Notes: a model not told the origin generated them from the letters alone. A stretch of DNA of 64,000 nucleotides from Heptranchias perlo (GCF_035084215.1 NC_090333.1:36766001-36830000); one strand, 5' to 3'. Positions 4,987 to 46,430 are shown, counted from the stretch's first letter. Program-made: numbers and translations.

Positions 4987-5157
4987 AGCGGTGGACGCTG
5001 ATTCACTGAATTCCTTCAGACGAGAACTGGACCAGTTTCTGGCTGGGGTGGAGGTCAACTCATATGTAACATTAATCAGGGCTAAATTGGTCTCTTGCAC
5101 TAGTTTCGATCGCCTAAGGGGGTTGGACAGGAAACTTTCATTTTTTTACCTCTAATT
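4987..5157 (+). mobile_element. CR1 3'-region fragment interrupting the Harbinger transposase 5' end
   Basis: gctgattcactgaattccttcagacgagaactggaccag matches the reverse complement of the 3960-4020 region and matches about 61650-61830. Confidence 0.75.
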
Positions 5158-6165
5158 GGCACTCAGGGACCAATTCTCTTACCTCAACTTCAGTGACGAC
5201 CAGTGCATCAGACAGCTGCGGTTCACTAAAGAGGTCGTGACTGAAATTTATCAACTGCTGCAGCCACAACTGCAGCCTCAGAATAGGGCAAGGACAGCAT
5301 TACCTGTGGCTGTCAAGTTAACCGTGGCGCTTAATTTTTATGGCTCTAGCTCCTTTCAGGCTGCTGCTGGTGATATAAGCAACATCTCACAGTTTGCAGT
5401 GCACTGCTGTATAAAGGAGGTCACTGAGGCTCTGTACACACTCAAACAGATTCATCTCATCCCCTCTTGTCAGAGACAAGCAGCGGGAGTGAGCACGAGG
5501 GTGTGCTTGCATCGCAGGCTTCCCCATGGTGCAGGGTGCCATTGACTGTACACATATTGCTATGAATGCTTCACATCAGAACTCGGCCATATTCATGAAC
5601 AGAAAGGGATTCCACTCCCTCAATGTGCAGCTGGTGTGTAACCACATGCAGCACATCAGGTCAATACCCGCTGTCCTAGCAGCAGTCCATGATTCCTACA
5701 TCCCGCGGCAGTCCAATGTGCCACCTATATTTCAACCAGCACGGCAAATCAAAAGCTGGCACTGGGTGACAAGGGCTATCCCTTCATGAAATGGCTCATG
5801 ACTCTGGTCAGGAACCTATGCACACGTGCACAGCAGGCCTACAACGAGAACCATGCTGCCATACAGAACATCATAGAGCACACCATAGGCATCCTCAAGC
5901 AATGCTTCCGCTGCCTGGACTACCCTGGAGGAGCCCTGCAGTACTCAACTGACCGGGTATCAAGATTTTTCGTTGTATGCTGCATGCTGCACAACCTGGC
6001 CATTATGAGGGGACAGCCCTTGTCACCACCTATCCGGTGAGAACCTGAGCAAGAGGAGGAAGAGGTGGAGGAGGAGGTGGAGGAGGAGGCAGGGAGGCTA
6101 CAAGGTAGACAGGCCCTGTCTGCCAGGGCTCTACGTGATCAGATGATTAATGAACAATACCAGTA
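5158..6165 (+). pseudogene. Harbinger (HARBI1-like) DDE transposase, frameshifted
   Basis: LRFTKE..ALPVAVKLTVALNFYGSSSFQ, GAIDCTHI, NRKGFHSLNVQLVC, HDS, GDKGYP (about 5765-5782) and NIIEHTIGILKQCFRCL..CCMLHN are spread over several frames, followed by an acidic tail. Confidence 0.9.
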
Positions 6166-6399
6166 ACCTCAACGACATCTCCCCATTCACCAACAGTCCC
6201 ACACTCTTAACCTTTCCTCTCTCATATGACCATAAAATTGTCCTCCTTATGATTACACATTGTTTCCTCCCTCAGCTCATCGCAGAAATGAAAACCAACA
6301 CCAAATACAAATTCATAACCACATTTATAGATTTACAGATCAAATGATTCAAACAAAATGATACTATTCACCCTTGTGCATTCTCTCAATGTCTGTCGT

Positions 6400-8172
6400 T
6401 CATGTGCCTTTATCTTTCCTAGTGCTCCTACGAGGTGCATCCCCAGTGGCTGGAGCATAGGTAGTGGACTGTTGAGAAGTGTTGAAATGGCCTGAGAGGA
6501 CGACCTCAAGCAGCTTTGACCGAGAGGCCCCAGCTTCAGACTGCACCATCTCAGCCAGGGCTGCAGCAGTCTGGCCTGGCTGGCTGACAGGCAACAGCAA
6601 AGGCACTGGTGGAGTGGCAGAGGAGAGGGCAGGAATGGTGTCAGCCTGAAAGAAAACAGCACGTACGACTGCCATGGCACTACTGCCACTCTCCCGGGGC
6701 GGCGCCTCAGCAATCCTGGTGAACAGATTGCTGGACTGTTGTGACGTCCTAGAAGCCCCTTTTCACAGTGGAACCTAGAGCCATGATAGCAGCAGTCTGA
6801 GCTAACAAGGCAACAGTCTGACCTTGGATGGCAACTGTTGGTGTTGCAACGGAAGCTACAACATCGGTCATCAGATGCTGTATCATGGTGGATTCTACAG
6901 GTGTGCTGATGGAGGTGACCACCCATTCTATGTTGGAAAGGATGGACTCCAAGCTCTGCATAAAGCCCTGTGCCAAGTGCAGCTGGACAACTCCATGCCC
7001 CTTGACATTGTGCGCAGGCTTTCTGGCAAGCTTTCCAGTTTACCAAGCCTTTAGTTGTGTACGCCCATCAGCCTTCTTCTGGTGCAACCTCACCCTCGGG
7101 TGAGCCGGCATCTGCAGTATCCATTCCCCCCACACCAGCTCCTTGCCACTGGTGCCCGGTGTCTCATCACGTGCAGATCCCTCCTCTATCTTAGCCTCTA
7201 AATTACGCGCAGTGTCAGTCTCTGAGCTGGTGCCTGCGAGTGGAAGATCAAGTGATGGTGTATCTGCATCATCACTGTCGTCTTTTTTTGCCTTCTCTGA
7301 CTGGGCAGGTTCCAGTTCTTGGGTATCTGAAATGACAAAAGGACACAGGTTGAGTTTTAGTGCAGGGAGAGGAGAAAGTAAGACGTGTGTGCTCACACCA
7401 TCTGCAGCATGGGAGTCAGAAAAGATTGTAGGATGAGGGAGGAGCGAGAAGCGAGAAGGAGGATTAGGTATGCAGAGACCCTAATCATTGATACCTCCAG
7501 CACCGCCAGTGGCCATGGCTGCAACAACGGCCCGCCCAATAATGGATAGCACTGTCTCCTTCATGGGGTGAGCCCGTGTAGGTGTGCTTGTCCTCCCCCA
7601 GTTCTTTCCTGCTGTCTACTGTTGCGCGCCACCTTCTCTTGCAAGAAAGAGGGAAGTGTATCAGTGAGTGTCCTGCAAGATGTTTGGTTGATGTGGCTGT
7701 CATGGTTGACTAGCTGCCAGCGTGTGTGACCTGTGACTTATGGGTGTGCGGCTTGCAAGAGTGGTAATGTGTGAGGGTGAAATGAAGCATCTGATTTGCA
7801 GGGTTGCGTACTAATGGAAAGAGTTTGTTGGTAGGTGGTTATGGGGGGTTGTAGTACGTGGAGCAGTGGATGAGGCTAGTGATGCAGTGACAGGTTATGC
7901 CACTTGACAGTGAACTCACCTTGACCACTTGTGTCAAATCATTGAACTTCTTCCTGCACTGCATCCATGTGCATGGTGCGATGCTCCTGGCATTTACCTC
8001 GTGCACGACTTCCTCCCACTGCCTCTTCAGTATATTTCTGGAGGACCCCTTGCCCCTCCTGCGGATATAGGATGCCCCTCCTTCTGGCCACCTCTTCCAC
8101 CAAGGCCTCTAATGCACCGCCCCAGAACCTTGGTACACACTCTCCTGAAGGCACAGCCATTCCTCGCTATCA
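6400..8172 (-). pseudogene. Harbinger ORF2 Myb/SANT DNA-binding protein, probably 3 exons, frameshifted
   Basis: RFWGGALEALVEEVARRRGILYP..WEEVVHEVNARS..QCRKKFNDLTQVVK|gtgag (exon ends 7920); exon 2 KVARNSRQQERTG near 7640; exon 3 acceptor gtcatttcag near 7326. Confidence 0.8.
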
Positions 8173-10437: not shown

Positions 10438-11564
10438 ATAATCTTTGAGTTTTGACAGTAGATTATCTTCCTTATAATAATAATTTCAGGAGTGAAATTG
10501 TGCAGCTATGTGTGCAAAATTTCTGTAAGAAACGATAAATTAAAACTAGCACAGCAGGATCAATAATGAAACCTAGCTGAGAAAGACTGAGGGCTGACTA
10601 TAACTATTCACACATACAGCTGACAATCACAAAGCACTCGGTCATTCCTGTGACAAATGGAGTAAGAGTGAAGAACGCGCAAACCAAGGTTTATGGATCA
10701 AGATCTGGAAAGCAAAGTGTCTCCTACCAAACCAAGGAGAAAGCCGCCAATATCCGGAAGGGGAAGCAGACGTGGGAGGCTATCACACAAGTGAGCTTCA
10801 TTAAATGTACCTTGCCATATGTGATAGGTGCCATTAATGAAAATCAAAGTAAATTACAGATTTCAATAGGCTTCTGCTTAAGTTTCTTAGTATAGTTGAC
10901 CTGAATGGATCCAGTAATCTGTTTCAAATGCAATACAAAGGGAGTGAATGAATATTGTTACGAATTAGCACAGTAAGATCAACAAAAGGAAAGCCTAGAA
11001 TGAGGCACCTGGGAAGGATTGAAGACTGATTATAATTATTTAAATACACAGCTCACAATTGCGCACTCAGTTCTTACAAACCTTCTGTAGGTAAGCTACA
11101 AAACTGTGCTGTTACCTTAAATAGATAAAATACTTTCTCATTCAATGCATATTAATCTTCTCCTTATAAAAAAAGCTGCCTTCAAAGGAAAGTAAGGAGT
11201 ACCGCTGTGAAATGGAAATGTCGGAGAGGCCATTGTCTGTGAAGTTGCACAGGGCCTACAAGTCGGACGAGGGGAATACACTCCAGGTTTATGTAATTAT
11301 AATCATGTACCTTCTCTGTGTAAATGTGATTCAACAGCTGTAAAACAGTGACTAAACAGCACCATAACATGTGCTGTGTACTATCTGAACAGCAATAACA
11401 ACATGTCCATTGAATTAGCACATTGCTATTTCTTCTGCAGATATATTACAACCCAGAAGCAATAAATTGGGGCCTCTTCCCACTGTATTCAGAGTTTTCA
11501 CTAGTTCAAGCACACCCAGAGAAACTAATTTCAGAGAGCCTTGGTAATTTAGAAAAGGAAGCAC

Positions 11565-11700
11565 CTTTTGAACACCTATATTAAATCTCTCCCTTAACCT
11601 TCTCTGTTCTAAGGAGAACAATCTCAGCTTCTCTAGTCTCCCCACGTAACTGACGACCCTCATCTTTGGTATAATTATAGTAAATTGCTGCACCCTTTCC
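11565..11700 (-). mobile_element. CR1 fragment
   Basis: RVQQFTIIIPKMRVVSYVGRLEKLRLFSLEQRRLR. Confidence 0.75.
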
Positions 11701-11779
11701 GAGTCTAAAGAGAGTTTTTTTTTAAATTTGTTCATGGGATGTGGGCGTCACTGGCAAGGCCAGCATTTATTGCCCATCC

Positions 11780-14688
11780 CTAATTGCCCTTGAGAAGGTG
11801 GTGGTGAGCTGTCTTCTTGAACCGCTGCAATCCATGTGGTGAAGGTTCTCCCACAGTGCTGTTAGGAAGGGAGTTCCAGGATTTTGACCCAGTGATGATG
11901 AAGGAACGGCGATATATTTCCAAGTCAGGATGGTGTGTGACTTGGAGGAGAATGTGCAGGTGGTGTTGTTCCCATGTGCCTGCTGCCCTTGTCCTTTTAG
12001 GTGATAGAGGTTGCAGGTTTGGGAGGTGCTGTCGAAGAAGCCTTGGCGAGTTGCTGCAGTGCATCCTGTGGATGGTACACACTGTGCGCCGGTGGTGAAG
12101 GGAGTGAATATTTAGGGTGGTGGATGGGGTGCCAATCAAGCTGGCTGCTTTGTCCTGGATGGTGTCGAGCTTCTTGAGTGTTGTTGGAGCTGCACTCATC
12201 CAGGCAAGTGGAAAGTATTCCATCACACTCCTGACTTGTGCCTTGTAGATGGTGGAAAGGCTTTGGGGAGTCAGGAGGTGAGTCACTGACCGCAGAATAC
12301 CCAGCCTCTGACCTGCTCTTTTAGTCACAGTATTTATGTGGCTGGTCCAGTTAAGTTTCTGGTCAATGGTGACCCCCAGGATGTTGATGGTGGGGGGTTT
12401 GGTGATGGTAATGCCGTTGAATGTCAAGGGGAGGTGGTTAGACTCTCTCTTGTTGGACATGGTCATTGCCTGGCACTTATCAGGCATGAAAGTTACTTTC
12501 CACTTAGCAGGCCAAGCCTGGATGTTGTCCAGGTCTTGCTGCATGCGGGCATGGAATGCTTCATTATCTGAGGGGTTGTGCATGGAACTGAACACTGTGC
12601 AGTCATCAGCGAACATCCCCATTTCTGAACTTATGATGGAGGGAAGGTCATTGATGAAGCAGCTGAAGATGGTTGGGCCTAGGACTCTGCCCTGAGGAAC
12701 TCCTGCAGCAATGCCCTGGGGCTGAGATGATTGGCCTCCAACAACCAGTATCATCTTCACTTGTGCTAGGTATGACTCCAGCCACTGGAGAGTTTTCCCC
12801 CTGATTCCCATTGACTTCAATTTTACTAGGGCTCCTTGGTGCCACACTCTGTCAAATGCTGCCTTGATGTCAAGGGCAGTCACTCTCACCTCACCTCTGG
12901 AATTCAGCTCTTTTGTCCATGTTTGGACCAAGGCTGTAATGAGGTCTGGAGCTGGGTGGTCCTGGCAGAACCCAAACTGAGCATCGGTGAGCAGGTTATT
13001 GGTGAGTAAGTGCTGCTTGATACCACTGTCAACGACACCTTCCATTACTTTGCTGATGATTGAGAGTAGACTGATGGGGCGGTAATTGGCCGGATTAGAT
13101 TTGTCCTGCTTTTTGTGAACAGGACATAGCTGGGCAATTTTCCACTTTGTTGGGTAGATGCCAGTGTTGTAGCTGTACTGGGACAGTTTGGCTAGAGGCG
13201 CGGCTAGTTCTGAAGCACAAGTCTTCAGCGCTACGGCCGTGATGTTGTCAGGGCCCATAGCCTTTGTTGTATCCAGTGCACTCAGCAGTGTCTTGATATC
13301 AAATGGAGTGAATCGATTTGGTTGAAGACTGGCTTCTGTGATGGTGGGAATATTGGGAGGAGGCCGAGATTGATCATCTACTCGGCACTTCTGGCTGAAG
13401 ATGGTTGCAAACGCTTCAGCCTTGTCTTTTGCACTCACGTGCTGGATTCTGCCATCATTGAGGATGGGGATGTTCACGGAGCCTCCTCCTTGCGTTAGTA
13501 TTTAATTGTCCACCACCATTCACGACTGGGTGTGGCAGGACTGCACAGCTTTGATCTGATCCATTGGTTGTGGAATCGCTTAGCTCTGTCTATATCATGC
13601 TGATTCTGCTGTTTATCATGCATGTAGTCCTGTGTTGTAGCTTCACCAGGTTGGCACCTCATTTTTAGGTACGCCTGGTACAGTTCCTGGCATGCTCTTC
13701 TACACTCCTCATTGAACCAGGGTTGATCCCCTGGCTTGTTGGTAATGGTAGAGTGACGAATATGCCAGGCCATTAGGTTACAGATTGTACTGGAATACAA
13801 TTCTGTTGCTGCTGATGGCCCACAGCACCTCATGGATGCCCAGTTTGAGCTGCTAGATCTGTTCCGAATCTATCCCATTTAGCACGGTGGTAGTGCCACA
13901 CAATACATGGTGTCCTCAATGTGAAGGCAGGACTTCATCTCCACAAGGATTGTGCGGTGGTCACTCCTACCAATACTGTCATGGACAGATGCATCTGCAA
14001 CAAGGTCAAGTAAGTTTTTCCTTCGTGTTCGTTCGCTCACCACCTGCCGCAGGCCCAATCTGGCAGCTATGTCCTTCAGGACTCTGCCAGCTCGGTCAGT
14101 TGTGGTGCTACCGAGCCACTCTTGGTGATGGACATTGAAGTTCCCCACCCAGAGTACATTCTGTGCCCTTGCTACCCTCAGTGCTTCCTCCAAGTGGTGC
14201 TCAACATGGAGGAGGACTGATTCATCAGTTGAGGGTGGGCGGGTGGTGGTAATCAGCAGGAGGTTTCCTTGCCCAGGTTTGACCTGATGCCTTGAGTTTT
14301 CATAGGGTCCAGAGTCAATGTTGAGGACTCCCAGGGCCACTCCCTCCTGACTGTATATGACTGTACTACCACCTCTGATGGGTCTGTCCTACCGGTGGGA
14401 CAGGACATACCCAAGGATAGTGATAGGAGAGTCTGAGACGTTGGCTGAAAGGTATGATTCTGTGAGTAAGGCTATGTCAGGCTGTTGCTTGACTAGTCTG
14501 TGGGACAGCTCTCCCAATTTTGGCACAAGTCCCCAGATGTTAGTGAGGAGGACTTTGCAGGGTCGACTGGGCTTGGTTTGCCTTTGTCGTGTCTGGTGCC
14601 CAGTGGTCCGATGCAGGGTGGTCCGTCCGGTTTTATTCTTATGATTTTTGTAGCGAGATTGTACAACTGAGTGGCTTGCTAGGCCATT
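11780..14688 (-). pseudogene. EN-RT polyprotein of the tRNA-headed LINE (one nonsense codon at 14389-14391 plus frameshifts)
   Basis: EN motifs LLTNIWGL, PDIALLTESYL, GNFNVHH, SDH. RT motifs NYRPISLLS, LDIKAAFDRV, GVPQGRVLGP, MFADD. The 565-aa RT part is open over 11780-13477. Confidence 0.9.
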
Positions 14689-14904
14689 TCAGAGGGCAAT
14701 TAAGAATCAACCATATTGCTGTGGGTCTGGAGTCACATTTAGGCCAGACCGGGTAAGGATGGCAGGTTTCCTTCCCTAAAGGACATTAGTGAACCAGATG
14801 AGTTTATACGACAATTCGATAAAAATTTCATGGCCACCATTACTGATGCTAGTGTTTACTTTTAACTTAATTAATTGAATTTAAATTCCCCAGCTGCCAT
14901 GGCA

Positions 14905-14958
14905 GGATTTGAACGCATAACTCCAGACTATTAGTCCAGTAACATAACCACTATGCTA
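14905..14958 (-). promoter_or_regulatory. Internal RNA Pol III type-2 promoter (A and B boxes)
   Basis: A box TAGCATAGTGG (14958-14948) and B box GTTCAAATCC (14914-14905), with tRNA-like spacing near the element's 5' end. Confidence 0.75.
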
Positions 14959-16084
14959 CCATACCCAGTGCAAAGGAGAGTCTTTAGACTAAAGCTAGCA
15001 GCAAAATTCCTGACAGAATGTCCACAGTATCAAACAGTTCAACATGCAGGCTAGTAACACCTTTAAATAGTGCTTAACAAACCATAAAAAAAATCATGCC
15101 AAGTCTGTGCTTTAATGTGGGTTCATCATGTTGAGAATATTGGAAAGTTGGTGTATAGGAACAGGAAACCATGCTCATTTTCACCTCCTTAATCCATGCC
15201 GTGGCTCTCCACACTCCAGCCACTCGCCCTCACTGGTTTCTCCCAGCACCATCACAGCCTCAACTGTACGTGTTTTAGCCTCTCACCATGCCCAAAAGCT
15301 TCACTTTCTTCAATCCTCCGTGCTACGGCCATCCATCTGCACGGTTCCTTCCAGTGCCATCACAGACCAAAGTAAAATAAGTTAAAGCAATTGGATATTC
15401 AAATAAATTCAGGGTAGCCTTCATTTTTAACTTTTGAGACAGATTATTCTTTGTTATGATGTAAAAACAAAAAAAATGTTGATTGTTTTTGTATTTATTA
15501 TGATGATGTAGCCAGTGTAACAATCAAGTTCTAAGGGGAAACAATAATCGCATCCTGCCAGCACTAAATATCATAATGTAATTAGTTTTATAAGCAGAGT
15601 AGGCTTAACATAAACTGGCAATATACCAGTATATTGAGAGAACATTCTGAATTAAAGAAATCTTCTGCAGTTTAATATTTCTCTAATTCTACACTAGAAC
15701 ATAAGCTATTTATATCTTGGTCTTCAATCCCAACTGCACTCTGCAGGAGATTGACTATAATATATTAAATTTGCTATGTATCTTTAATACTCCCTATCTT
15801 GGCATTACTATTCTGTCACAGAAGTCACTCCTACAGCTACATGAAGCTATCTACCACTACATGAAGCTTCATAAACTCCAGATCCCCTTTCCTTTACCTA
15901 CAGTACCACTGTGCACATAGCTTCATTGCTCCAGCACATCACCAACATTCCCAACCTTCCTCCTGGTAACCGTAATTTTGGAACAACTTACCATTTTCTT
16001 TATCCCTTACTTCAGTTTCCCCCTTTTCTATGTTTAAAGTAAACGATTCATGAAACTTTAAGTGTTTTTCTTGCTGAAAGATTA

Positions 16085-17829
16085 ATTCGGCAGGCTCAAC
16101 ATAATTAATGTAAGCAAATTAACAGTAATAAAGGAAATACTGGCACAAAAGAGTGACAAATCCCCAGGACCAGATGGTTTCCATCCCAGGGTTTTAAAGG
16201 AAGTAGGTGTGAACATTGCAGATGCCCTAACTATAATCTTCCAAAGTTCTCTCAATTCAGCAACTGTTTCTTTAAATTTGAATTTTTTTTTTAATTTGTT
16301 CATGGGATGTGGGCGTCACTGGCAAAGCCAGCATATGTTGCCCATTCTTAATTGCCCTTGAAAAGGTGGTGGTGAGCCGCCTTCTTGAACCGCTGCAGTC
16401 CGTGTAGTATTGTATATATCATGCTGCGATTTAAGAAAGGTTAGATAGGGAAACCAGGGAATTATAGACCAGTTAGCCTAACATCTGTTGTTGGAAAATT
16501 ACTAGAGTCTATAATTAAGGATAGAGTGACTGAATACCTTGAAAATTTTCCACTGATCAGAGAGAGCCAGCATGGATTTGTAATGGGTAGGTCATGCCTG
16601 ATGAACCTGACTGAATTTTTTGAAGAGGTGACTAAAGTAGTGGACAAGGGAATGTCTATGGATGTTGTTTATATGGACTTCCAGAAGGCATTCGATAAAG
16701 TCCCTCATAAGAGACTGTTAGCTAAAGTTGAAGCTGAGGGCAAATTATTGACCTGGTTAGGAAATTGGCTGAGTGGCAGGAGACAGAGAATAGGGATAAT
16801 GGGCAGGTAGTCAAATTGGCAGGATGTAACTAGTGGTGTCCCACAGGGATCTGTGTTGGGGCCCCAACTATTCACTGTATTTATTAACAACTTAAATGAC
16901 AGGATACAGAGCTACACATCCAAGTTTGCTGATGACACAAAGATAGGCAGCTTTGTAAGAAGTGTAGATGGAAGCATAAAGTTACAGAGAGATATTACTA
17001 GGTTAAGTGAATGGGAAAAACTGTGGCAAATGGATTTCAATGCAGGCAAGCGTGAGGTCATCCAATTTGGACCTAAAAAGGATAGATCAGAGTACTTTCT
17101 AAATGGTGAAAACACGAAACAGTGGAGGTCCAAAGCGACTTAGGGGTCCATGTACATAGATCATTAAAATGTCATGGACAGGTACAGAAAATAATCAAAA
17201 AAGCTAATGGATTGCTGGCCTTGTATCCAGAGGACTAGAATACAAGGGGGTAGAAGTTATGCTACAACTACACAAAGCCCTGGTTAGACCACATCTAGAG
17301 TACTGTGTTCAGTTCTGGGCATCACACCTTAGGAAGGATGTATTGGCCTTGCAGGGAGTGCAGCATATATTTACTGGAATGATACCTGGACTCCAAGGGT
17401 TAAATTATGAGGAGAGATTACACAAACTAGGGTTGTATTCCCTGGAATTTAAAAGATTAAGGGATGATTGGATTGAAATTTTCAAGATATTAAGGGGAAC
17501 TGATAGGGTAGAGAGAGAGAAACTATTTCCGTTTGTTGGAGAGTCTAGGACTAGGGGAATTAGAGCCACGACTTTTGGGAGTGAAGTGGGAAAACACTTC
17601 TGCACGCAAAGGGTGGTAGAAGTTTGGAACTGTCTTCCGCAAATGGTAGTTGAAGCTAGCTCAATTGTTAATTTTAAATCTGAGATTGATAGTAACTTTG
17701 GTTAACAAAAATCTAAGGAATATGTGGCTAAGGTGGGGATATGGAGTTAGATCACAGATCAACCATGATCTCACTGAATGGCGGTACAGACTTGAGGGGC
17801 TAAATGGCCTATTCCTGTTCCTATGTTCC
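16085..17829 (+). mobile_element. CR1 LINE RT and 3' end (5'-truncated), interrupted near 16270-16430
   Basis: DKSPGPDGFHPRVLKE, YMDFQKAFDKVPH, SKFADD and LVRPHLEYCVQFW, with tail ctgttcctatgttcc. Same family as 31262-33892. Confidence 0.9.
16284..16405 (-). mobile_element. 3' tail fragment of the tRNA-headed LINE family nested in a CR1
   Basis: Near-identical to 11715-11835, including the T-run (poly-A on minus). Confidence 0.85.
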
Positions 17830-17912: not shown

Positions 17913-18481
17913 CCTGCCACAATGCCTTTCCACCATCTACAAGGCACAAGTCAGGAGTTTGATGGAATACTCTCCACTTGCCTGGATGAGTGCAGCTCTA
18001 ACAACACTCAAGAAGCTCAACACCATCCAGGACAAAGCAGCCCGCTTGATTGGCACCCCCATCCACCACCCTAAACATTCACTCCCTTCACCACCGGCGC
18101 ACTGTGACTGCAGTGTGTACCATCCACAGGATGCACTCCAGCAACTCGCCAAGGCTTCTTCGACAGCACCTCCCAAACCCGCGACCTCTACCACCTAAAA
18201 GGACAAGAGCAGCAGGTACATGGGAAAAACACCACCTGCACATTCCCCTCCAAGTCACACACCATCCCGGCTTGAAAATATATCGTCCTTCCTTCATCGT
18301 CGCTGGGTCAAAATCCTGGAACTCCCTTCCTAACAGCACTGTGGGAGAACCTTCACCACACAGACTGCAGCAGTCCAAGAAGGCGGCTCACCACCACCTT
18401 CTCGAGGGCAATTAGGGATGGGCAATAAATGCTGGCTTTGCTAGTGACGCCCACATCCCTTGAACGAATAAATAAAAAAAA
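17913..18481 (+). mobile_element. 5'-truncated copy of the tRNA-headed LINE family
   Basis: TIYKAQVRSLMEYSPLAWMSAA..HHHLLEGN* followed by the same tail and an A-rich end. Confidence 0.9.
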
Positions 18482-23131: not shown

Positions 23132-26100
23132 ATGGTTGTAGTAGGCGACAGTCTAGTTAGGGGGATTGACACTGTTCTCTGCAGCCAGGAGCATGAGTCC
23201 CGAAGGCTATGTTGCCTACCCGGTGCCAGGGTTAAGGACATCTCCTCCGGAGAAGAACTTGAAGTGGGAGGGGGAGGATCCAATTGTCATGGTCCATGTA
23301 GGTACCAACGACATAGGTAGGACTAAGAAAAAGGTTCTGCTGAGAGAGTTTGAGCAGCTAGGGACTAAATTATAAAGCAGAAACACAAAGGTAATAATCT
23401 CTGGATTATTACCCGAGCCATGAGCAAATTGGCATAGGGTCAATAGGATCAGGGAGATGAATGCTTGGCTCAAAGATTGGTGTGGGAGAAGTGGGTTTCG
23501 ATTCGTGGGGCACTGGCACCAGTACTGGGGAAAGAGAGAGCTGTTCCGTTGGGATGGACGACACCTGAACCATGCTGGGACTAGAGTTCTCGTGAATCGA
23601 GTAACTAGGGAGGTAGATAGGGCTTTAAACTAAATAAGGGGGGGAGGGTCCCGGTGGAGAGAAATCTAGAATGCTAAAGAGAAAAGACAAAGAAGCAGTG
23701 CAGGAAAGTGATTGGGGTAAGGATAACCAGATTGTGTCAGGAAGGGACAGAGCGCACAAACAAAAGACAAAAAACAGGGTCCAGGTAAGAAAAAATGGTA
23801 ATAAGACAAATAGGGCCATAGTACAAAATAATGTTAAGATGTCTAAAAATGTTAAAAAGACAAATCTAAAGGCACTGTATCTGAATGCACGAAGCATTCG
23901 TAATAAGGTAGACGAATTAACAGCGCAAATAGATGTAAACGGATATGATATAATAGCAATTACTGAGACATGGCTGCAGGTGACCAAGGCTGGGAGCTGA
24001 ATATCCAAGGGTATTCGATATTTAGGAAGGACAGACAAAAAGGAAAAGGAGATGGGGTGGCGTTGTTAGTAAAGGATGAAATCAAAGCAATAGTGAGAAA
24101 GGATATTGGCTCAGAAAATCAAGATGTAGAATCAGTCTGGGTGGAGTTAAGAAGCACCAAGGGGCAGAAAACACTGGTGGGAGTTGTCGATGGGCCTCCA
24201 AACAGTGGTGGTAATGTAGGGGATGGGATCAAACAGGAAATTAGAGAAGCATGTAACAAGGGTACTACAGTAATCATGGGTGACTTTAATCTGCATATAG
24301 ACTGGCCAAACCAAATTAGCAATAATACTGTGGAGGATGAATTCCTGGAGTGTGTACGAGATTTTTTTTAGACCAGTACGTTGATGAGCCAACCAGGGAA
24401 CAGGCTATCCTAGATTGGGTATTGTGCAAGGAGAAGGGGTTAATTAATAATCTTGTTGTGCGGGGTCCTTTCGGGAAGAGTGACCATAACATGATAGAAT
24501 TCTTCATTAAGATGGAAAGTGAAGTAGTCCAATCCGAAACTAGGGTCCTAAATCAAAACAAAGGAAACTACGAAGGTATGAGGAGTGAGTTGGCTATGAT
24601 AGATTGGGAAGCTTCATTAAAAGGCATGACGGTGGATAGGCAATGGATAACATTTAAGGAACGCATGCATGAATTGCAACAATTATACATTCCTTTCTGC
24701 TGCAAGAACACAAAAGGAAAAGCGGCCCAACTTTGGCTAACAAAAGAAATTAAGGATAGTATTAGATCCAAAGAGGAATCATATAAAGTTGCCAGAAAAG
24801 GTAGCAAGCCTGAGGATTGGGAGCAGTTTAGAATTCAGCAAAAAAGGACCAAGAGATTGATTAAGAGGGGAAAAATAGAGTATGAGAGTAAACTTGCAAG
24901 GAACATAAAAGTGGACTGTAAAAGCTTCTACAAGTATGTAAAAAGAAAAAGATTAGTGAAGACAAATGTAGATCCCTTACAGTCAGAAATTGGAGAATTT
25001 ATAATGGGGAACAGGGAAATGGCAGAGCAATTAAACAAATACTTTGGTTCTGTCTTCACGGAAGAGGACACAAATGACTTCCCAGAAATGTTAGGGAACC
25101 AAGGGTCTAGTGAGAAAGAGGAATTAAAGGAAATTAGTATTAGTAAAAAAAGTGCTGGAGAAATTAATAGGACTGAAAGCCGATAAATCCCCAGGACCTG
25201 ATAATCTGCATCCTAGAGTACTAAAAGAGGTAGCCATGGAAATAGTGGTTGCATTAGTTGTCATCTTCCAAAATACAATAGATTATGGAACAGTTCCTGC
25301 AGATTGGAGGGTGGCAAATGTAACCCCACTATTTAAAAAAGGAGGGAGAGAGAAAACAAGGTACTACAGACCGGTTAGCCTAACATCAGTAGTAGGGAAA
25401 ATGCTAGAGTCTATTATAAAGGATGTGATAATAGGACATTTAGAAAATATCAACGGGATTAGACAAAGTCAACATGGATTTATGAAAGGGAAATCATGTT
25501 TGACAAACCGACCGGAGTTTTTTGAGGATGTAGCTGGTAGAATAGATAAGGGAGAAACAGTGAATGTGGTTTATTTGGATTTTCAGAAGGCCTTTGATAA
25601 AGTCCGACATAAGAGGTTGGTGTGCAAAATTAAAGCACTTGGGATTGGGGGTAATATACTGGCATGGATTGAAAATTGGTTAACAGACAGGAAACAGAGA
25701 GTAGGAATAAATGGGTCTTTTTCGGAGTGGCAGGCGGTGACCAGTGGGGTACCGCAGGGATCAGTGCTTGGTCCCCAGCTATTCACAATATATATCAATG
25801 ATTTGGATGAGGGAACCAAATGTAATATTTCCAAGTTTGCTGACGACACAAAACTAGGTGAGATCGTGAGTTGTGAGGAGGATGCAAAAAGGCTTCAAGG
25901 CGATTTAGACAAGTTGAGTAAGTGGGCAAATACATGGCAGATGCAGTATAACATGGATAAATGTGAAGTTATCCACTTTGGAAGGAAAAACAGAAAGGCA
26001 GAGTATTATTTAAATGGTGACAGATTGGGGAATGTTGATGTACAAAGGGACCTGGGTGTCCTTGTACACCAGTCACTGAAAGCAAACATGCAGGTGCAGC

Positions 26101-26778
26101 AAGCAGTTAGGAAGGCAAATGGTATGTTGGCCTTCGTTGCAAGAGGATTTGAGTACAGAAGCAAGGATGTCTTACTGCAGTTATACAGGGCCTTGGTGAG
26201 ATCACACCTGGAGTATTGTGTGCAGTTTTGGTCTCCGTACCTAAGAAAGGATATACTTGCCATAGAGGGAGTGCAGCGAAGGTTCACCAGACTGATTCCT
26301 GGGATGGCAGGACTGTCGTATGAGGAGAGATTGGGTCGACTCGACCTGTATTCACTCAAGTTTAGAAGAATGGGAGAGGATCTAATTGAAACATATAAAA
26401 TTCTGACAGGGCTAGACAGACTGGATGCAGGGAGGATGTTTCCCCTGGCTGGGGGGTCCAGAGCGAGGGGTCACAGTCTCAGGATACGGGGTAGGACATT
26501 TAGGACTGAGATGAGGAGAAATTTCTTCACTCAGAGGGTAGTGAACCTGTGGGATTCTCTACCTACCACAGAAGGCTGTGGAGGCCAAGTCACTGAATAT
26601 ATTTAAGATGGAGGTAGATAGATTTCTAGACACAGAAGGCATCGGGGGCATGGGGAGAGAGCGGGAATATGGTATTGAGATAGTGGATCAGCCATGATCA
26701 TATTGAATGGCGGAGCAGGTTCAAAGGGCCGAACGGCCTACTCCTGCTCCTATTTTCTGTGTTTCTATGTTTCTGTGC
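23132..26778 (+). mobile_element. Long CR1 LINE: ORF1 SGNH-esterase part plus complete but frameshifted ORF2 (EN+RT)
   Basis: VVVGDSLVRG, HVGTND; YLNARSI, AITETWL, MGDFN, SDHN; [26 protein letters not shown]; tail ttctgtgtttctatgtttctgtg. Lies antisense in SHISAL2A intron 1. Confidence 0.95.
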
Positions 26779-28075: not shown

Positions 28076-28593
28076 ACTGTTTGAATGTTGATTTGTCTGA
28101 AACCATTAACTTTGTTTCGGCAGACAGTTTCTCGTTAGTATTCCGATTCTCACGCAACAGTTCTTTCATAGTTGGAACCTAGAGATAATTGCTTTACTGG
28201 AGTAAACCCCTGAAGGTCTGAAGCAAAATGTATTTGCTCACCTGCGTTTTCAGCTCACTCATGGAACGAGTCCATTCTGGGTGGTAAATAAGTAAAATCA
28301 CTTTCACTGTGCCCCTTTGTGGTGCTTTTTTTTTTCTCTTTCTCTGTCCCTGTGGTTCTCTCACTGGGTTCCTTTATATTTTCTGAAATCATGCTCCCCT
28401 GGGGAATGTGCCTTTGATTTCTCGCTCCGGCAGGTTGAGTCTCCCGCCGGGAGCACAATTTCATAACATGGCCCTTGCAATTTTAGCATTGCTGTGAAGT
28501 GATTTCTGCTTCCCACATCTACTGAACTTGTAATGTAATCAGAAGGACAGTGCCTAATCTGACTCCAGAACAATCCAGATTGAGGCTTCCTGC

Positions 28594-29572
28594 ATAAGAA
28601 CATAAGAAATAGGAGCAGGAGTAGGCCAAACGGCCCCTCGAGCCTGCTTCGCCATTCAATAAGATCTTGGCTGATCTTCGACCTCAACTCCACTTTCCCA
28701 CCCGATCCCCATATCCCTTGATTCCCTTAGAGTCCAAAAATCTTTCGATCTCAGCCTTGAATATACTCAACGACTCAGCATCCACAGCCCTCTGGGGTAG
28801 AGAATTCCAAAGATTCACAACTCTCTGAGTGAAGACATTTCTCCTCATCTCAGTTCTAAATGGCCGACCCCTTATCCTGAGACTATGTCCTCTAGTTCTA
28901 CACTCTCCAGCCAGGGGAAACAGCCTCTCAGCATCTACTCTGTCAAGCTCACTCAGAACCTTATATGGTTCGATGAGATCACCTCTCATTCTTCTGAACT
29001 CCAGAGAGTGTAGGCCCATTCTACTCAATCTCTCCTCATAGGACAACCCCCTCATTCCAGGAATCAATCTAGTGAACCTTCGTTGCACTGTCTCTAAGGC
29101 AAGTACATCCTTCCTTAGGCACGGAGACCAAAACTGGACACAGTGCTCCAGGTGTGGTCTCACCAAAGCCCTGCACAATTGCAGCAAGACTTCCTTACTC
29201 TTGTACTCCAAACCCCTTGCAATAAAGGTCAACATACCATTTGCCTCCCTTATTGCTTGCTGTACCTGTATGTTAACGTTCTGTGTTTCGTGGACAAGGA
29301 CACCCAAATCCCTCTGAACACCAACTTTAATAGTTTCTCACCATTTAAAAAATATTCTGTTCTTCTGTTCTTGCTACCAAAGTGAATAACCTCACATTTC
29401 TTCACGTTATACTCCATCTGCCAACTTCCCGCCCACTCACCTAACCTGTCTATATCCCTTTGCAGACTCTTTCCATCCTCCTCACAGCTTACTTTCTCAC
29501 CTAGCTTTGTATAGTCAGCAAACTTGAATACATTACACTCAGTCCCTTCATCTAAGTCATTAATATAGATTG
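28594..29572 (-). mobile_element. CR1 LINE 3' fragment, relatively young
   Basis: 207-aa ORF LVRPHLEHCVQFWSP..RGHSLRI..NLWNSLP; tail ataagaacataagaa on +. Confidence 0.92.
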
Positions 29573-29663
29573 CAGGAGAGAGTTTCACACCACTTCCCTT
29601 TGATAGGAACTCAGAATGTAAATCTACCGTGGTGTCAAATGAGGTGTATAAAATCCCTTATTA

Positions 29664-32600
29664 TCATAGTAGGTACAGCACAGGAGGAGGCTATTCGGCC
29701 CATCATGCCTGTGTCGGCTCTTTAGAAGAGCTATCCAATTAGTCCCATTCCCCTGCTCTTTCCCCATAGCCCTGTAATTTTTTTCCTTCAAGTATTTATC
29801 TAATTGCCTTTGAAAGTTATTATTGAATCTGCTTCCACCATCCTTTCAGGCAATGCATTCCAGATCATTACATCTCGCTGCGTGAAAAATATGTTTCCTC
29901 ATGTCACCTCTGGCTCTTTTGCCGATTACCTTAAACCTGTGTCCTCTGGTTACCGACTCTTCTGCCACTGGAAACAGTTTCTCCTTATTTACTCTATTAA
30001 ACCCCTTCATGATTTTGAACATCTCTATCAAATCTCCCCATAACTCCTCTGTACTAAGGAGAACAACCCCTGCTGCTCCAGTCTCTCCATATAACTGAAG
30101 TCCCTCATCCCTGGTACCATTCTAGTAAATCTCTTCTGCACCCTCTCTAAGGCCTTGACATCCTTCCTAAAGTGTGGTGCCCAGAACTGAACACAATGCT
30201 CCAGCTGAAGCCTAACCTGTTTTTATAAAGGTTTAGCATAATTTCCTTGCTTTTGTACTCTATGCCTCTATTAATAAAGCCCAGGATCCCATATGCTTTT
30301 TCAACAAACTTCCCAACTTGTCCTGCCACCTTCAAAGATTTGTGTATGTGCACCCTAGGTCTCTCTGCTCCTGCACCCCCTTTAAAATTGTACCATTTAG
30401 TCTATATTGCCTCTCCTCATTCTTCCTACCAAAATGTATCACTTCACGCTTCTCTGCATTAAATTTTATCTGCCATGTGTCTACCCATTTCACCAGGCTG
30501 TCTATATCCTCCTGAAGTCTGTTACTGTCCTCCACATTGTTTACTATATTTCTGAGTTTCGTGTCATCTGCAAACTTTGAAATTACACCCTTTATACCCA
30601 AGTCCAGGTCATTAATATGTATCAAAAAGAGCAGTGGTCTTAGTACTGACCCCTGGGGAAAACCACCGTATACTTCCCTCCAGTCTGAAAAACAACTGTT
30701 CACCACTACTCTCTGCTCTCTTAGCCAATTTTATATCCATGCTGCCACTGTCTCTTTAATCCCATGGGCTTTAATTTTGTTAACAAGTCTATTATGTGGT
30801 ACTTTATCAAATGCCTTTTGAAAATCCATATACACAACATCAATTACACTACCCTCATCAACCCTTTCCATTACTTTATCAAAAAACTCAATCAAGTTAG
30901 TCAAACACAATTTTCCTTTAACAAATCCATGCTGACTTTAATTTATTAGCACATACTGTTCCAAGTGCCAATTAATTTTGTCCCGGATTATTGTCTCTAA
31001 AAGTTTCCCCACCACCGATGTTAGGCTGACTGGCCTGTAATTGCTGGGTTTATCCTTCTCTTTTTTGGAAAATTTGCAGTCCTCCAGTCCTCCGACATCA
31101 TCCCCATATCTAAGGAGGTTTGGAAGATTACTTCCCTCCATAACCTTGGATGCATCCCATTTGGACTTGGTGACTTTTCTACTTTGAGTACTGCCAATCT
31201 TTTAAGTACCTCCTCTTTACATATTTTTATCCTATCCAATATCGCTACTACCTCCTCCTTTAGGAACATAGGAACAGGAGTAGGCCATTTAGTCCCTCGA
31301 GCCTGTTCCACCATTCAATGAGATTATGGCTTATCTGTGACCGTACTCCATTTACCCGCTGTAGCCCTATATCCCTTAATACCTTTGGTTAACAAAAATC
31401 TATCAATCTCAGATTTAAAATTAACAATTGAGCTAGCAAAAAACTGCCATTTGTGGAAGATAATTTCAAACTTCTACCACCCTTTGCATGTAGAAGCGTT
31501 TCCTAACTTCACTCCTGAAAGTCCTGGCTCTAATTTTTAGGCTATGTCCCCGAGTCCTAGACTCCCCAACCAGCAGAAATAGTTTCTCTCTATCTACCCA
31601 ATCAGTTCCCCTTAATATCTTGAAAACTTCGATCAAATCACCCTTAATCTTCTAAACTCCAGGGAATACAACCATGGTTTGTGTAATCTCGCTTCATAAT
31701 TAAATCTACGCTGCACTCCCTCCAAGGCCAATATATCCTTCCTAAGGTGCGGTGCCCAGAACTGAACACAGTACTCCAGGTATGGTCTAACTAAGGCTTT
31801 GTATAGTTGTAGCATAACTTCTACCCCCTTGTATTCTAGTCCTCGAGATATAAAGGCCAACATTCCATTAGCCATTTTGGTTATTTTCTGTACCTGTCCA
31901 TGACATTTTAATGTTCTAGATACATGGACCCCTAGGCTTCTTTGGACCTCCACTGTTTCGAGCTTTTCACCATTTAGAAATTACTCTGATCTATCCTTTT
32001 TAGGTCCAAAGTGGATGACCTCAAACTTGCTTACATTGAAATCAATTTGCCACATTTTTGCCCATTCACTTAATCTATTATCTCTCTGTAATTTTATGCT
32101 TCCATCTACATTGCTTACAGTGCTACTTATCTTTGTGTCATTGGCAAACTTGGATATGTGGCTCTCAATCCCATCATCTAAGTTGTTAATAAATACAGTG
32201 AATAGTTGAGACCCCAACACAGAGTCCTGTGGGGCACCACTAGTCACATTCTGCCAATTTGACTATCTGCCCACTGCTGCTCAGCCAATTTCCTAACCAG
32301 GTCAGTAACTTGTCCTCAATTCCATGAGCTTCAACTTTAGCTAACAGTCTCTTATGAGGGATTTTATCAAATGCCTTCTGGAAATCCATATAAACATATC
32401 TATAGACATTCCCATTCCCTTGTCCACTACTTTAGTCACCTCTTTTTAAAAATTCAATCAGGTTCATCAGGCATGACCTACCCTTTACAAATCCATGCTG
32501 GCTCTCTCTGATCAGCTGAAAATTTTCAAGGTGTTCAGTCACTCTATCCTTAATCATAGACTCTAGTAATTTTCCGACAACACATGTTAGGCTAACTGGT

Positions 32601-34950
32601 CTATAATTCCCTGGTTTCTCTACCTCACCTTTCTTAAATAGCGGAGTGACACGTGCAATTTTCCAATCTAAAGGAACGGTTCCTGAATTGAGAGAACTTT
32701 GGAAGATTATAGTTATGGCATCTGCAATGTTCTCACCTACTTCCTTTAAAACTCCGGGATGGAAACCATCTGATCCTGGGGATTTGTCACTCTTTAGTGC
32801 CATTATTTTCTTCATTACTGTTAATTTGCTTACGTTAATTATGGTGAGTCCCCGTCCCTGATTCAAAATTAGTTTCCTTGGGGCGTCTGGCATACTAACC
32901 TCTTCCTCTCCTGTAAATACTGACACAAAGTAATTATTTAACACATCCACCATTTCCTTATTTTCATTTACAATATTACCATTGTCAGTTTTTAAGGGGC
33001 CTATATTGCTTTTGACTACCCTCTTTTTCCTAATATAATTGTAAAAAACTTTTGTGTTGATTTTGATATCCCTTGGAAGTTTCTTTTCATACTCCCTTTT
33101 TGTAGCTCAAACTATTTGTTTTGTCACCCTTTGCTGTTCTTTGTATCTCTCCCAATTGCCAGGCTCTGTGCTATTTTTTGCATTCTTGTATGTTTTTTTT
33201 AGTTTTATGTTGTCCCTTACCTCTTTTGTCATCCATGGCTGTTTTTTTTGGCAAGTAGAGCTCTTGCCCCTTAGGTGTATAAACTGGTTCTGTATCACGT
33301 TAAATTCTTTTTTGAACACTTCCCTCTGATCTTCTGTCGTTTTACCCATTAACAGATTTGCCCAGTTTGCTGTGGACAGTCTCTGTCTCATCACATTGAA
33401 GTTGGCCTTATCTAAATTTAGAATCTTAGTAGCTGATATGGGTTTCTCCCTTTCAAATACAACGTTCAACGCGATTGTATTATGATCACTATTAGATAAA
33501 TGTTCATGCACTGTTAGGCTGTTAAGCAAATCTGGCTCATTATCATTATTAAATCTAATATGGCCTGCCCCCTTGTTGGTTCTAGAACATATTGTTGCAG
33601 AAAGCCGTCCTGAACGCACTCAAGAAATTCGCTAGCTTTCTGACATGAGCTCGCCTGCTTCTCCCAATCGATATGAAAATTAAAATCCCCCATTAAAACC
33701 ACTCTGCCTTTGCTACATGCTTGTCTAATCTCTGCATTTATACATTCTGCCACTTCGTAGCTGCTACCATGGGGCCTATACACAACTTCTTCTACAGTCT
33801 TAAATCCTTTTCTATTTCTTAATTCTACCCATAGTCTCCACTGCCTGCTTACCTCTCGTTATATCCTCTCTTACCATTAAAGTAATTTCATCCTGCTACA
33901 ATGGCAGCATCCTCTTCTCTAGAGAAAATGGATACAATGTATATATTTAGTACATCAGCCATGCCCTCTGCTTCCACAAGATCTTTTTTGTCTCTAATCG
34001 GTCCCACCCTTCCTTTGACTACCCTTTTACTATTTATATGTTTATAAAAGACTTTTGGGGTTCCCTTTTATGATTGCCATTAATCTATTCACATACTCTC
34101 TCTTTGCCCCTCATTCCCTTTTTTAGATCTCCTCTGTACTTTCTGTAATCAGCCTGGTTCTCTACTGTGTTATGAAACTTACATTCGTCATAAACCTCCT
34201 TTTTCTGTTTCTTTTTAATCTCTATATCTTTAGTCATCCAGGGAGGACTAGCTTTGGATGCCCTTCCTTTCCCCCTAGTGGGAATGTGTCTACGCTGTAC
34301 CCAAACCAACTCCTCCTTGAAGGCCTCTCATTTACTGTTTTGCCTACCAATTTTTAATTCCAATCCACCTGGCCAAGATCACTTTTTAACTCACTAAAAT
34401 TAGCCCTCCTCCAGTAAAGCATTTTCACATTTGATTGTTCCTTGTCCTTTTCCATAACTATTCGAAACCTAATGATATTATGATCACTGTTCCCTCAATG
34501 CTTCCCCACTGAAACATGCTGCACCTGTCTCATTTCATTTCCCCAGACTACATCCAGCACTGTTTCCTTCCTGGTTGGGCTGGAAATACTCTGTTCCAGA
34601 AAGTTCTCTTGAACACATTTCAGGAATTCCTCCCCCTATTTGCCTTTTACAGTGTTACTGTCCCAGTCCATGTTGGGATAATTGAAGTCCCCAATTATCA
34701 CTATTCTGTAGTTCTTGCATCTTTCTGTAATTTGCCTGCAAATTTGCTCCTCTATCTCCTTCCTACTATTTGGTGGCCTATAGTATACACCCAGTAGCGT
34801 AATAGCTCCCCTATTGTTCCTCAATTCTAACCAAATAGATTCTGTCTTTGACCCCTCAACTACATCAACCCTTTCTAGTACTATAATAGTTTCTTTGAGC
34901 AATACTGCCACCCCCACACCCACTTTCTTTCCTTCCTTATCTTTCCTGAA
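29664..34950 (-). mobile_element. CR1 LINE (EN to 3' end) split by a nested CR1
   Basis: RT and 3' part at 29664-31260 (KFADD); linker and EN part at about 33893-34950 (GVYYRPPNS, IGDFNYP). Confidence 0.8.
31262..33892 (-). mobile_element. Nested CR1 LINE (EN-RT-3' end)
   Basis: Its own tail aggaacataggaacagg at 31262 interrupts the host element. Motifs LMGDFNFH, SDHN and NYRPVSLT. Confidence 0.85.
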
Positions 34951-35884
34951 TCCCTTTGACCTCCTGGATACTTTTTACACTTAATCTAGCAGACCATAAA
35001 ACGCCTAGTAAATAGTTTATTTTTAAAGGAACCCTTAGCAAAATTTGCTTTCAAGTTTGGTTTTAAAGATATCAATATTTTTTAAACATAACTCTTTTTA
35101 CAAGTTCAGTAACCTCAGACGGGCAACATGAGATCCGTCCACCTGATCACAAATAGCAGTTCTACACTGACTGGCCATGTCCTTTTGGGCTCACTGCTCT
35201 CCTGCAATGCCATCTCCTCCAACTTGGACTGATGTTCTCCTGCATAGTCAGCTGCTCCAATCTGGATCTGCTGCTGCTCTCCCATTAAACAGCTACTTCT
35301 ATTTCTTGCTCCATTAGTTTTCCTTTTTGAATTCTGCAGGGCTGAAAATTTGGAAAAGGCTGTGCTCGGTACTACTATTGTAGATTTAGGATTTATCCGT
35401 CAATAACCACTGAGAATAACATTTCTACCAGTTACAATTATTCAATCTTTGCTACAGTATCTGTTACTTGGAGACTACTTTAATGAAAAATTGGAAAATT
35501 TTAACAATTTTCTACCATATAACAGTAGTACCATATCAACCTACTGCCTCCATATTAATTTCACCAACTGCCAATTACTATATCTCAGAACAACAATTCT
35601 GTATCACCAGGTACACAACAGTCCACACAGAATAAGCTTAAAAAAAATTTGTGAAGTTAATACACATGTTAAAAACATGTCAGCACTTATTTTACAAAAC
35701 AAGAAATTACAAGCAAGTCAGCTTGCCTAGCTCACTCAGCTCAAAGATTCTGCACCTAAAGCTGCCCAATGATATATTTTTCTGTAACTCACCAATTCCT
35801 TTTAAATGTCCTCTATGAATATCAAGCCGCACAAGGCAAACTTATATCAAAGACATACAAGTTAAACTTACCGATCAGGAAACT

Positions 35885-45140: not shown

Positions 45141-46430
45141 TTATTGACCCCTAGACTACACCGTTTCCAAAGCTTCTCCAGTCCAAGCAACACCCTTTAA
45201 CCCTAGCCCTTTGTTTCCTGTCTGTCAACAAACTATATTCTATCTACGCTGCTACCTTCCCTCTTATATCATATACCTAAATTTTTGAAACAAGCCTCCT
45301 GTAAGACAATTTATTGAAAGTCTTCTGAATATCCGTCTACACATCTGCTGAATTCCCTTTATCCACTCAATCACATCTTCAAATAACTGTAACTCTTGCA
45401 GCATTTCCTCATAACTGAGCTCTAATTGTATGTATTAATGTGGTTGCTCTCCTCTGCACCTTGTGCAGCAAAGAAATGGAACACAGTACTCAAAGTGCAG
45501 ATATACCATACCCTTATATAGCCTAAGGATAGTACTCTTCATTTTGTACTCAATTCCAGCAATACAATCTAAAACCTTATTTTCATTCCCTAAAGCCACC
45601 TCACGTTGCTTGTGCATATTTAACAAGTAATTGATTATACCTCCCAGGTCTCTTTCTTAATCTGTTACTTTTACTAGATACCTTGCAGGTCTCCCCTCCA
45701 AGTCACACACCATCCCGACTTGGAAATATATCGCCGTTTCTTCATCGTTGCTGGGTCAAAATCCTGGAACTCCCTTCCTCACAGCACTGTGGGAGAACCT
45801 TCACCACACGGACTGCAGCGGTTCAAGAAGGCGGCTCACCACCACCTTCTACAGGGCAATTAGGGATGGGCAATAAATGCTGGCCTTGCCAGCGACACCC
45901 ACATCCCATGAACGAATGAATAAATAAATATGCCTGCAGTTTCCTAACCCCAAATGCTTTTCTCCACATTAAATCTGTCAGACATTCTTCTGCATTGTTT
46001 AAGTTGGCCTGCAACTATTGATTTGAATTACTAACCCATATTCACATTTTCGTGTCATTAGAGAATTTAAGAATGGTCCCATTTAAGCTCTACTTTAAGT
46101 CACTAATGAAAATGATGAGCCACTTATGATCAGGCCCTAATCAGACTCACTCCCCTTAATGACAACTCTCTTTCTATCCAACATTATAGCTATGGAATAA
46201 TCACACATCTCCAATTTTTCTAATAGTCGTCTATGCAGTACTTTACTTTTAAAAATTTGGAAATCAGAACCTTAACAGGATTATCTTCATCCAGATACTT
46301 CTGCAAAGAACTCAAGCAGCTTAGTGAAGCAGAACCTATGTTTCCTAAAGCCATGCTGGGCATCCCTAAGAACTGCCAAAATATCCATTTAATCATAAAT
46401 CATACCCTGTATAATGCTTTCCAACAGAGT
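45140..46430 (-). mobile_element. Highly decayed CR1 remnants
   Basis: ILRLYKGMVYLHFEYCVPF and other weak RT remnants. Confidence 0.5.
45683..45928 (+). mobile_element. 3' fragment of the tRNA-headed LINE family
   Basis: gggcaattagggatgggcaataaatgctggccttgccagcgacacccacatcccatgaacgaatgaataaataaa. Confidence 0.9.

Follow-up and report, generated by a model that had tools for sequence, protein, structure and literature searches.

A CR1-Zenon LINE of Heptranchias perlo with a tRNA-like head, few T-runs and no AUG start: a candidate for Pol III transcription and cap-independent translation

Introduction

Can a vertebrate LINE be transcribed by Pol III, and if so, how would its protein be made? 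The question is raised by a 64,000-nt stretch of Heptranchias perlo DNA (GCF_035084215.1 NC_090333.1:36766001-36830000, referred to here as the window), in which a preliminary description pointed out about 3.1 kb of a protein-coding retroelement without TTTT (T4) on its sense strand, and proposed that the element had been selected for read-through by Pol III, which terminates at runs of four or more T.

A Zenon LINE in the longest T4-free stretch

From 11557 to 14820 (3264 nt) the plus strand is free of AAAA, and no other gap of this kind in the window is as long, the runner-up being 931 nt; the gap originally described (11724-14820) is therefore real and even wider. Position 11724 is the 3′ end of the element, from which the gap continues for 167 nt into the poly-A and flank, and an A5 on the plus strand (14821-14825) lies just beyond its other end. 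In base-composition shuffles of the region (n=2000), which ignore coding structure, the probability of no AAAA was 0.006. The stretch, the element and its relatives in the window are:

11557..14820, minus strand: T4-free stretch of the sense strand, found by scanning for AAAA on the plus strand
14821..14825, minus strand: T5 run, private to the window copy and missing in the other 32 aligned rows
11715..14966, minus strand: decayed full-length copy of a CR1-Zenon LINE, about 3.25 kb in length and sharing about 93% identity with other copies
11715..11779, minus strand: short 3′ UTR with AATAAA (within 11764-11773) and poly-A (11715-11723)
17917..18480, plus strand: same-family copy, 5′-truncated, 91% identity
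45692..45928, plus strand: same-family copy, 5′-truncated, 92% identity
16280..16408, minus strand: same-family 3′ fragment, 90% identity
61132..61190, minus strand: same-family tail fragment, 82% identity

The element consists of a tRNA-like head, a leader of about 280 nt, a single APE-RT frame, a short 3′ UTR and, as in CR1-Zenon, a poly-A tail; there is no ORF1, and a 355-nt leader alone precedes the ORF. The nearest proteins among the matches listed are single-ORF elements of 30-40% identity, in a clade apart from the CR1 of the window. Likewise, FastTree places P0001 inside the clade of these single-ORF relatives (support 0.92), whose Zenon label we infer, and away from the window CR1. 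The first 400 nt match, by eye, seven elasmobranch Zenon consensuses from five species, so the family is already known (PMC13343379); the published CarCar, HypSab, RhiTyp, ScyCan and SquAca_Zenon elements are, to judge from that source, the same family, with a single APE-RT ORF, no ORF1, a poly-A and a length of about 3.3 kb.

When the 3.25 Gb genome was searched with the 5′ ORF, 7961 first-look candidates emerged, and 40 of them were scored. Several copies are 98% alike, and the frame is intact (no internal stop) in 24 of 30 copies selected by protein search, from which we take it that the family is young, with many intact natural copies. A recurrent "1 TAG" in the copies turned out to be the terminal stop only. 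A near-repeat flanking the window copy was tried as a target-site duplication (TSD) and rejected: it is not family-wide, and 0 of 44 full-length copies have one of at least 7 nt. The viral contigs searched gave no match. Besides the young copies there is an old lineage (57 loci, 61,433 aligned nt); a DNA search with one of its copies as query returned young copies, and since its commonest letter differs from that of the young lineage at just 230 of 3323 columns, the two are not independent.

Other sequences in the window include canonical CR1 copies at 23600-26700 (+), 52890-56950 (+), 28400-34970 (-), 42670-43460 (+) and 16445-17705 (+), one of which includes an ORF1-like frame (52892-53527); two CR1 copies served as controls. 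A G-rich tandem repeat at 51589-52843 is a source of long spurious open frames. Broken frames at 5156-6040 (+) and 6333-7480 (-) resemble a PIF/Harbinger transposase and a partner gene in their motifs, and a fragment at 57812-58135 (-) is one we take to resemble the C-terminus of L2 ORF2. Outside the window, pieces of three protein models (P0003, aldo-keto reductase-like; P0020, SVEP1-like; P0022, storkhead-box-like), two of them named as sharks, are 71-80% identical to the Zenon ORF, and would be either annotation chimeras or exonised copies.

T-run depletion

When the window copy was aligned with 32 others, after exclusion of 7 of 39 for large indels, 21 of the 33 rows contained no T4 and no T4 site recurs in the ORF; the T5 in the head, which had to be copy-specific if the Pol III proposal was to hold, occurs in one row of 33. 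Similarly, 26 of 30 further copies lack T4 over the scored span (head covered in 14). The two shorter copies cited in the preliminary description (17913-18481 and 45683-45928, both on the plus strand) are also free of T4, which adds little because the expected runs there number only 0.74 and 0.49. The contrast drawn with CR1 was borne out by two families of the same genome (20 copies each), which keep 2.44 and 3.86 T4/kb; of the two CR1 runs quoted as examples, gtctttttcgg is present (at 25715), and gagtttttgagg is absent from the plus strand, which alone was searched.

Against shuffles of the element's own codons, the lack of T4 is borderline (0 observed vs. 2.0-2.2 expected, P 0.07-0.09; L149: 0 vs. 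2.1, P 0.08), and the stronger part of the case for depletion is T3 and the rank among controls. In L149, one of the youngest copies, T3 runs number 5 vs. 12.5 expected by codon shuffle (P 0.003), and the depletion recurs in two other copies (P 0.001 and 0.020), A3 being normal under this shuffle. A third-position null gave P 0.011-0.028 for T4 (L149: 0 vs. 3.4, P 0.025), and a null drawn from CR1 codon usage P 0.001-0.003 (L149: 0 vs. 5.1, P 0.001); both flag A3 as well, and for this reason (P 0.002) we regard the third-position null as imperfect. Among 52 control LINE ORFs (of 80 metagenome LINEs, those with an ORF of at least 500 codons), observed/expected ratios are 0.24-1.91 for T4 and 0.66-1.38 for T3, compared with 0 and 0.29 here. 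Mild T3 depletion appears in two of six CR1 ORFs (P 0.012 and 0.017), and C-ending codons are generally preferred. Four sets of assembled contigs gave no strand, start or level of expression; of 292 variants in them, 40 were inspected, and nine changes to A on the plus strand make no sense-strand T4, a check that has little power at this coverage.

The old lineage carries 0.50 T4/kb, with no ORF T4 site in more than two copies (61 kb), and a T4 or longer run at the T/A boundary behind the head in 6 of 19 copies. We read the latter as slippage, a T4 in the old master copy being possible; no T4 site is shared inside the unit of the young copies, and the old lineage has this one ambiguous site. 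A separate tally of T-runs behind the head read zero in 34 of 51 cases and, being noisy, carries no weight here. In a related pattern, poly-A tails often become mixtures of T-runs and A-runs after insertion, as slippage would produce, also at the T/A boundary behind the head.

The idea that all Zenons lack T4 was rejected, as the matched stretches of five Zenon-clade metagenome contigs contain 2-26 T4. A headless contig of the same clade (L170) has 36 T4 in its ORF and a Met upstream of the APE; this combination of no head, an upstream Met and many T-runs is what a Pol III model predicts, though it is one case. We read the T-run avoidance as real, lineage-specific and of moderate strength.

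A tRNA-like head as part of the mobile unit

Upstream of the leader lies a segment with the internal boxes of a Pol III promoter:

14895..14966, minus strand: tRNA-like head, 3′ limit approximate, 5′ end 8 nt ahead of the A box
14948..14958, minus strand: A box TAGCATAGTGG, identical in 36 of 45 head copies
14905..14915, minus strand: B box core GTTCAAATCC, AGTTCAAATCC in 33 of 45 head copies

The 5′ boundary is sharp, position -8 being G in 34 of 45 head copies and position -9 random. Among 39 copies selected by the ORF (including the near-duplicates L045 and L046), 30 extend to the head and 23 to the A-box region; conversely, 26 of 29 copies selected by the head continue into the ORF. The head is a constant component of the unit that moves. 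By eye, the first 400 nt of the seven published consensuses from five elasmobranch species carry the same head (PMC13343379), which is not present in the hagfish and coelacanth Zenon consensuses given there. Nor does it occur in the five Zenon-clade metagenome contigs, most of which are without 5′ ends.

The A and B boxes are constant while the spacer between them varies, so that 40 of 45 copies have an offset of 64-66 nt and the other five one of 43-49 nt, a difference due to an internally repeated hairpin of the youngest copies (e.g., L149 and L033) that the window copy does not have. ARAGORN and Rfam called no tRNA on the head, which is therefore tRNA-like by its boxes and position alone. 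Internal A and B boxes together with a fixed start are the make-up of a Pol III type-2 unit.

The head could instead be a SINE-type passenger, captured once, with a capped RNA that Pol II makes either by starting in the head or by reading through, and the T-poverty a product of codon bias and chance in one lineage. The borderline T4 result under codon shuffling, the general preference for C-ending codons, the AATAAA ahead of the poly-A and the derivation of every sample from one lineage all suit this explanation, as does the existence of headless Zenons (also in PMC6740152, as far as its available text goes). It fits less well with boxes that stay constant around a varying spacer, a 5′ end at a fixed tRNA-like offset, and a T3 depletion that survives the strict shuffle and lies beyond all 52 controls; in addition, nine upstream AUGs, none of them for the ORF, are poorly suited to cap-dependent scanning. 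We consider it an unlikely account. Selection for Pol III read-through, as first proposed, keeps the support of the fixed A/B-box head, the copy-private T5 and the T4-rich CR1s, and is weakened by the borderline T4 statistics and by the trait not being Zenon-wide.

A reading frame without an AUG

How such an RNA could be translated depends on the 5′ end of the ORF:

11780..14654, minus strand: single ORF with a basic N-terminal extension, APE and RT (FADD at 12602-12613), carrying a stop and frameshifts in this copy
14652..14654, minus strand: GCT triplet complementary to the loop AGC of the leader, out of frame here by a private indel

In other natural copies the ORF is intact at about 970 codons, with its first Met only at about codon 248 (247-252 in most), and Pfam finds the APE endonuclease upstream of it, at residues 43-243 (E 3.5e-10). 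Between the old and young lineages, pN/pS is 0.30 in the extension (P 0.03), 0.23 in the APE (P 5e-5) and 0.23 in the RT half. As these values are low upstream of the first Met, with the APE equal to the RT half, the region is translated. An in-frame TAA lies three codons ahead of the GCT in all 21 intact copies scored (of 27), and the leader holds nine ATGs, none of which opens into the ORF. Measured up to the NIWG motif, the GCT lies at a distance divisible by three in 67 of 81 young copies (lengths 102-126, in steps of three); it is in frame in one of three old copies scored and, by eye, in four of five published species, SquAca_Zenon-1 being one base off. The ORF very probably initiates at a non-AUG codon.

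This would not follow if the family were non-autonomous and mobilised by an RT truncated to its first Met or by a partner LINE, as the upstream frame need not then be translated. The lack of a TSD of at least 7 nt in all 44 full-length copies would be in keeping with that; the constraint ahead of the first Met at the level of the RT half, the Pfam match to the APE and the frames intact in 24 of 30 copies make it very improbable.

Leader fold and its likeness to type 6 IRESs

Four elements were delineated in the leader:

14725..14800, minus strand: leader domain 1, stem S1 (arms 14789-14800 and 14725-14736), from RNAalifold, with a compensatory pair
14774..14783, minus strand: possible UUUA-loop hairpin within S1, absent from the RNAalifold fold
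14755..14773, minus strand: CUGCC-loop hairpin within S1, with a compensatory A-U/G-C pair
14667..14692, minus strand: terminal leader hairpin with the 7-nt loop CU-AGC-AA (14676-14682)

RNAalifold was run on 25 natural copies (15 young and 10 old, picked for completeness), and recovered S1, the outer CUGCC stem and the terminal hairpin with its 7-nt loop, not the UUUA and GCAA hairpins. At pair 212:284 of S1, young copies have U-A (82 of 84) and old copies A-U (39 of 48), with a chance probability of 0.13; at pair 243:251, 54 of 90 young copies have A-U and another 28 have G-C; and the pair closing CUGCC is, by eye, C-G, U-G or U-A among the published species. The terminal hairpin has an A-C mismatch in young and a G-C pair in old copies. 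Overall, the 162-nt leader is as stable as its shuffles (z -0.54 and -0.40).

The loop AGC is complementary to the in-frame GCU, the spacer between them differing between lineages, and the terminal 7-nt loop has what we take to be anticodon-loop geometry; the base at U33 varies, 24 of 94 young copies having C or G there. The pairing of a hairpin loop with an in-frame triplet is described in the same way for pseudoknot PKI of type 6 IRESs (PMC10516663, PMC12221177, as far as their available text goes). The likeness to these elements, found in dicistrovirus intergenic regions (IGR), extends to a structured element of about 150 nt placed just before, and directly abutting, an AUG-less frame, and to a 3′ hairpin whose anticodon-like loop is complementary to an in-frame triplet. 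The loop of SLV in type 6 elements, read in reverse, is CAGCC. The leader loops UUUA and CUGCC resemble those of type 6 SLIV (AUUU) and SLV (CCGAC in the available text of PMC12221177).

There are also differences. No PKII, PKIII or L1.1 was convincing when sought by eye in the leader, pseudoknots being beyond what the folding tools predict, and Rfam matched no IRES or ribozyme there. Unlike in type 6 IRESs, the two small hairpins are adjacent within one stem, and the leader belongs to the 5′ end region of a retroelement in a cellular genome. The PKI-like AGC:GCU pairing is only 3-4 bp and invariant, with 93% of cells paired and no compensatory change, hence without covariation. The leader may work like a type 6 IRES, class membership being meant as likeness only.

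Pol III transcription could also be right and the protein start in another way, either from a near-cognate codon or by termination-reinitiation that needs no AUG, with ribosomes delivered by a mini-uORF (ATG-GCC-TAG, in frame, within the terminal hairpin) or by uORFs ending at leader position 275. Such uORF-type delivery and reinitiation are known for L1 ORF2. In-frame uORFs do exist here, the mini-uORF ATG is found in all five published species, ACG follows the GCT in 41 young copies, and the PKI-like pairing shows no covariation. Yet GTG replaces the ATG in the old lineage (55 G vs. 15 A), and ACG is not universal, with ACA and AAA in other sublineages and species. Besides, the second stop (TAA) bars simple read-through in the 21 of 21 intact copies scored, and ribosomes would still have to be loaded onto an uncapped RNA. 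We rate this alternative, too, as having a small share of the probability.

SINE-like derivatives

Head-plus-tail copies with varied junctions were found as 10 exact matches, which suggests that repeated deletion from the LINE yields SINE-like forms. Of the 30 loci with the old pattern, 3 extend far into the ORF; in most of the rest the tail follows soon after GCTA, a motif that the search itself required. Ten nucleotides at the leader end (14692-14701, minus strand) are the exact reverse complement of the ORF end and tail start (11781-11790) in young copies, and pair with two mismatches in old ones, at a rough chance probability of about 0.03-0.04; such pairing of the two ends might promote the deletions from which SINE-like copies result.

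Identification of the leader as a Deu domain was rejected, because the published AmnSINE1/hagfish Deu alignment (PMC7245038 supplement, available part) differs. By eye, set against this published segment of 130-140 nt, the leader shows no Deu/Nin central domain, the sole likeness being a 10-nt match to SINE2-7_EBu.

Proposed expression of the element

T-run avoidance, a tRNA-type promoter and the lack of an AUG before the endonuclease together point to an RNA that is likely made by Pol III and likely translated without a cap. The AUG-less start and the folded leader, which the preliminary description had missed, are the translation step that the Pol III model requires. We therefore lean towards reading this headed, T-run-poor, AUG-less Zenon LINE as Pol III-transcribed, with cap-independent initiation at a non-AUG codon, a reading that the sequences moderately favour.

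In the proposed scheme, TFIIIC and Pol III would transcribe the LINE from the A/B-box head, which we consider probable. Pol III would read through to a T-run in the flank, the A-tail being templated, as in SINEs; the AATAAA in the tail also fits Pol II. The uncapped RNA would be translated via the folded leader, which would set the frame at a non-AUG codon, and such structure-directed initiation is somewhat favoured. The terminal hairpin would act as a PKI-like tRNA mimic through pairing of its AGC with the in-frame GCU, and decoding would begin one codon further on; this is the least certain step, and we put it forward as possible rather than probable. The SINE-like forms would derive from the LINE by internal deletion. 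Taken to its full extent, the scheme would describe an active autonomous retrotransposon of a vertebrate that bypasses both Pol II and the cap, with a 3.3-kb terminator-free Pol III RNA and a type-6-like IRES that uses a tRNA-Ala anticodon mimic and no initiator tRNA; as a whole we hold this only tentatively, and would rather expect some part of it to fail.

Relation to published elements and significance

The family is known, and its mechanism has apparently gone unremarked, though Repbase or Dfam may already annotate the head. The main text of PMC13343379 has 0 occurrences of "promoter" or "tRNA", and no mention of the head, the T-run avoidance or the AUG-less start was found in its available text. 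The hagfish and coelacanth Zenons given there have different 5′ ends, with T4. A motif of about 45 nt in the 5′ UTR of L170 (about 390-440) is shared, by eye, with the 5′ end of LatCha_Zenon-1 and negative in Rfam, and may be a conserved UTR element in another Zenon lineage.

Like tRNA-derived SINEs (SINE2) such as shark SacSINE1, the Zenon element has an A/B-box head, a non-coding body, a LINE-type tail and a fixed 5′ end; unlike them, it carries an intact ORF of 2.9 kb. The 463-bp SacSINE1 couples a Deu body to an L2 tail (PMC5499810 and PMC2746220, available text). Internally deleted 5′-plus-3′ derivatives of a single-ORF LINE have been described as the Zenon-derived SIDE Persaeus (PMC6740152) and, similarly, as bipartite LINE-derived SINE bodies (PMC5786205). 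According to the parts of these papers available, Persaeus is without tRNA homology or a Pol III promoter, while the derivatives here are headed, and the parent LINE of the bipartite SINEs is assumed to be Pol II-transcribed, the head being added later; here, by contrast, the autonomous LINE itself bears the head. In the available text of PMC3894237, a factorless IRES in non-LTR elements is raised as a possibility only. The open full-text literature (leaving aside subscription papers, Repbase and Dfam) yielded no Pol III-headed autonomous LINE and no IGR-like IRES in one, and we found no description of the combination of Pol III with cap-free translation for an autonomous retrotransposon. In the available text of PMC12221177, type 6 IRESs are described as being of unknown origin.

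LINEs are taken to be Pol II transcripts (e.g., in the available text of PMC5786205), and Pol III is assumed to make short RNAs without coding capacity. A natural Pol III mRNA of 970 codons would, if true, break both assumptions. The family also provides a direct example in which deletion from an already headed LINE gives rise to a SINE-like element, and its SINE-like derivatives would, if the model is true, retain a ribosome-binding leader, which gives a testable reason for the conservation of SINE bodies.
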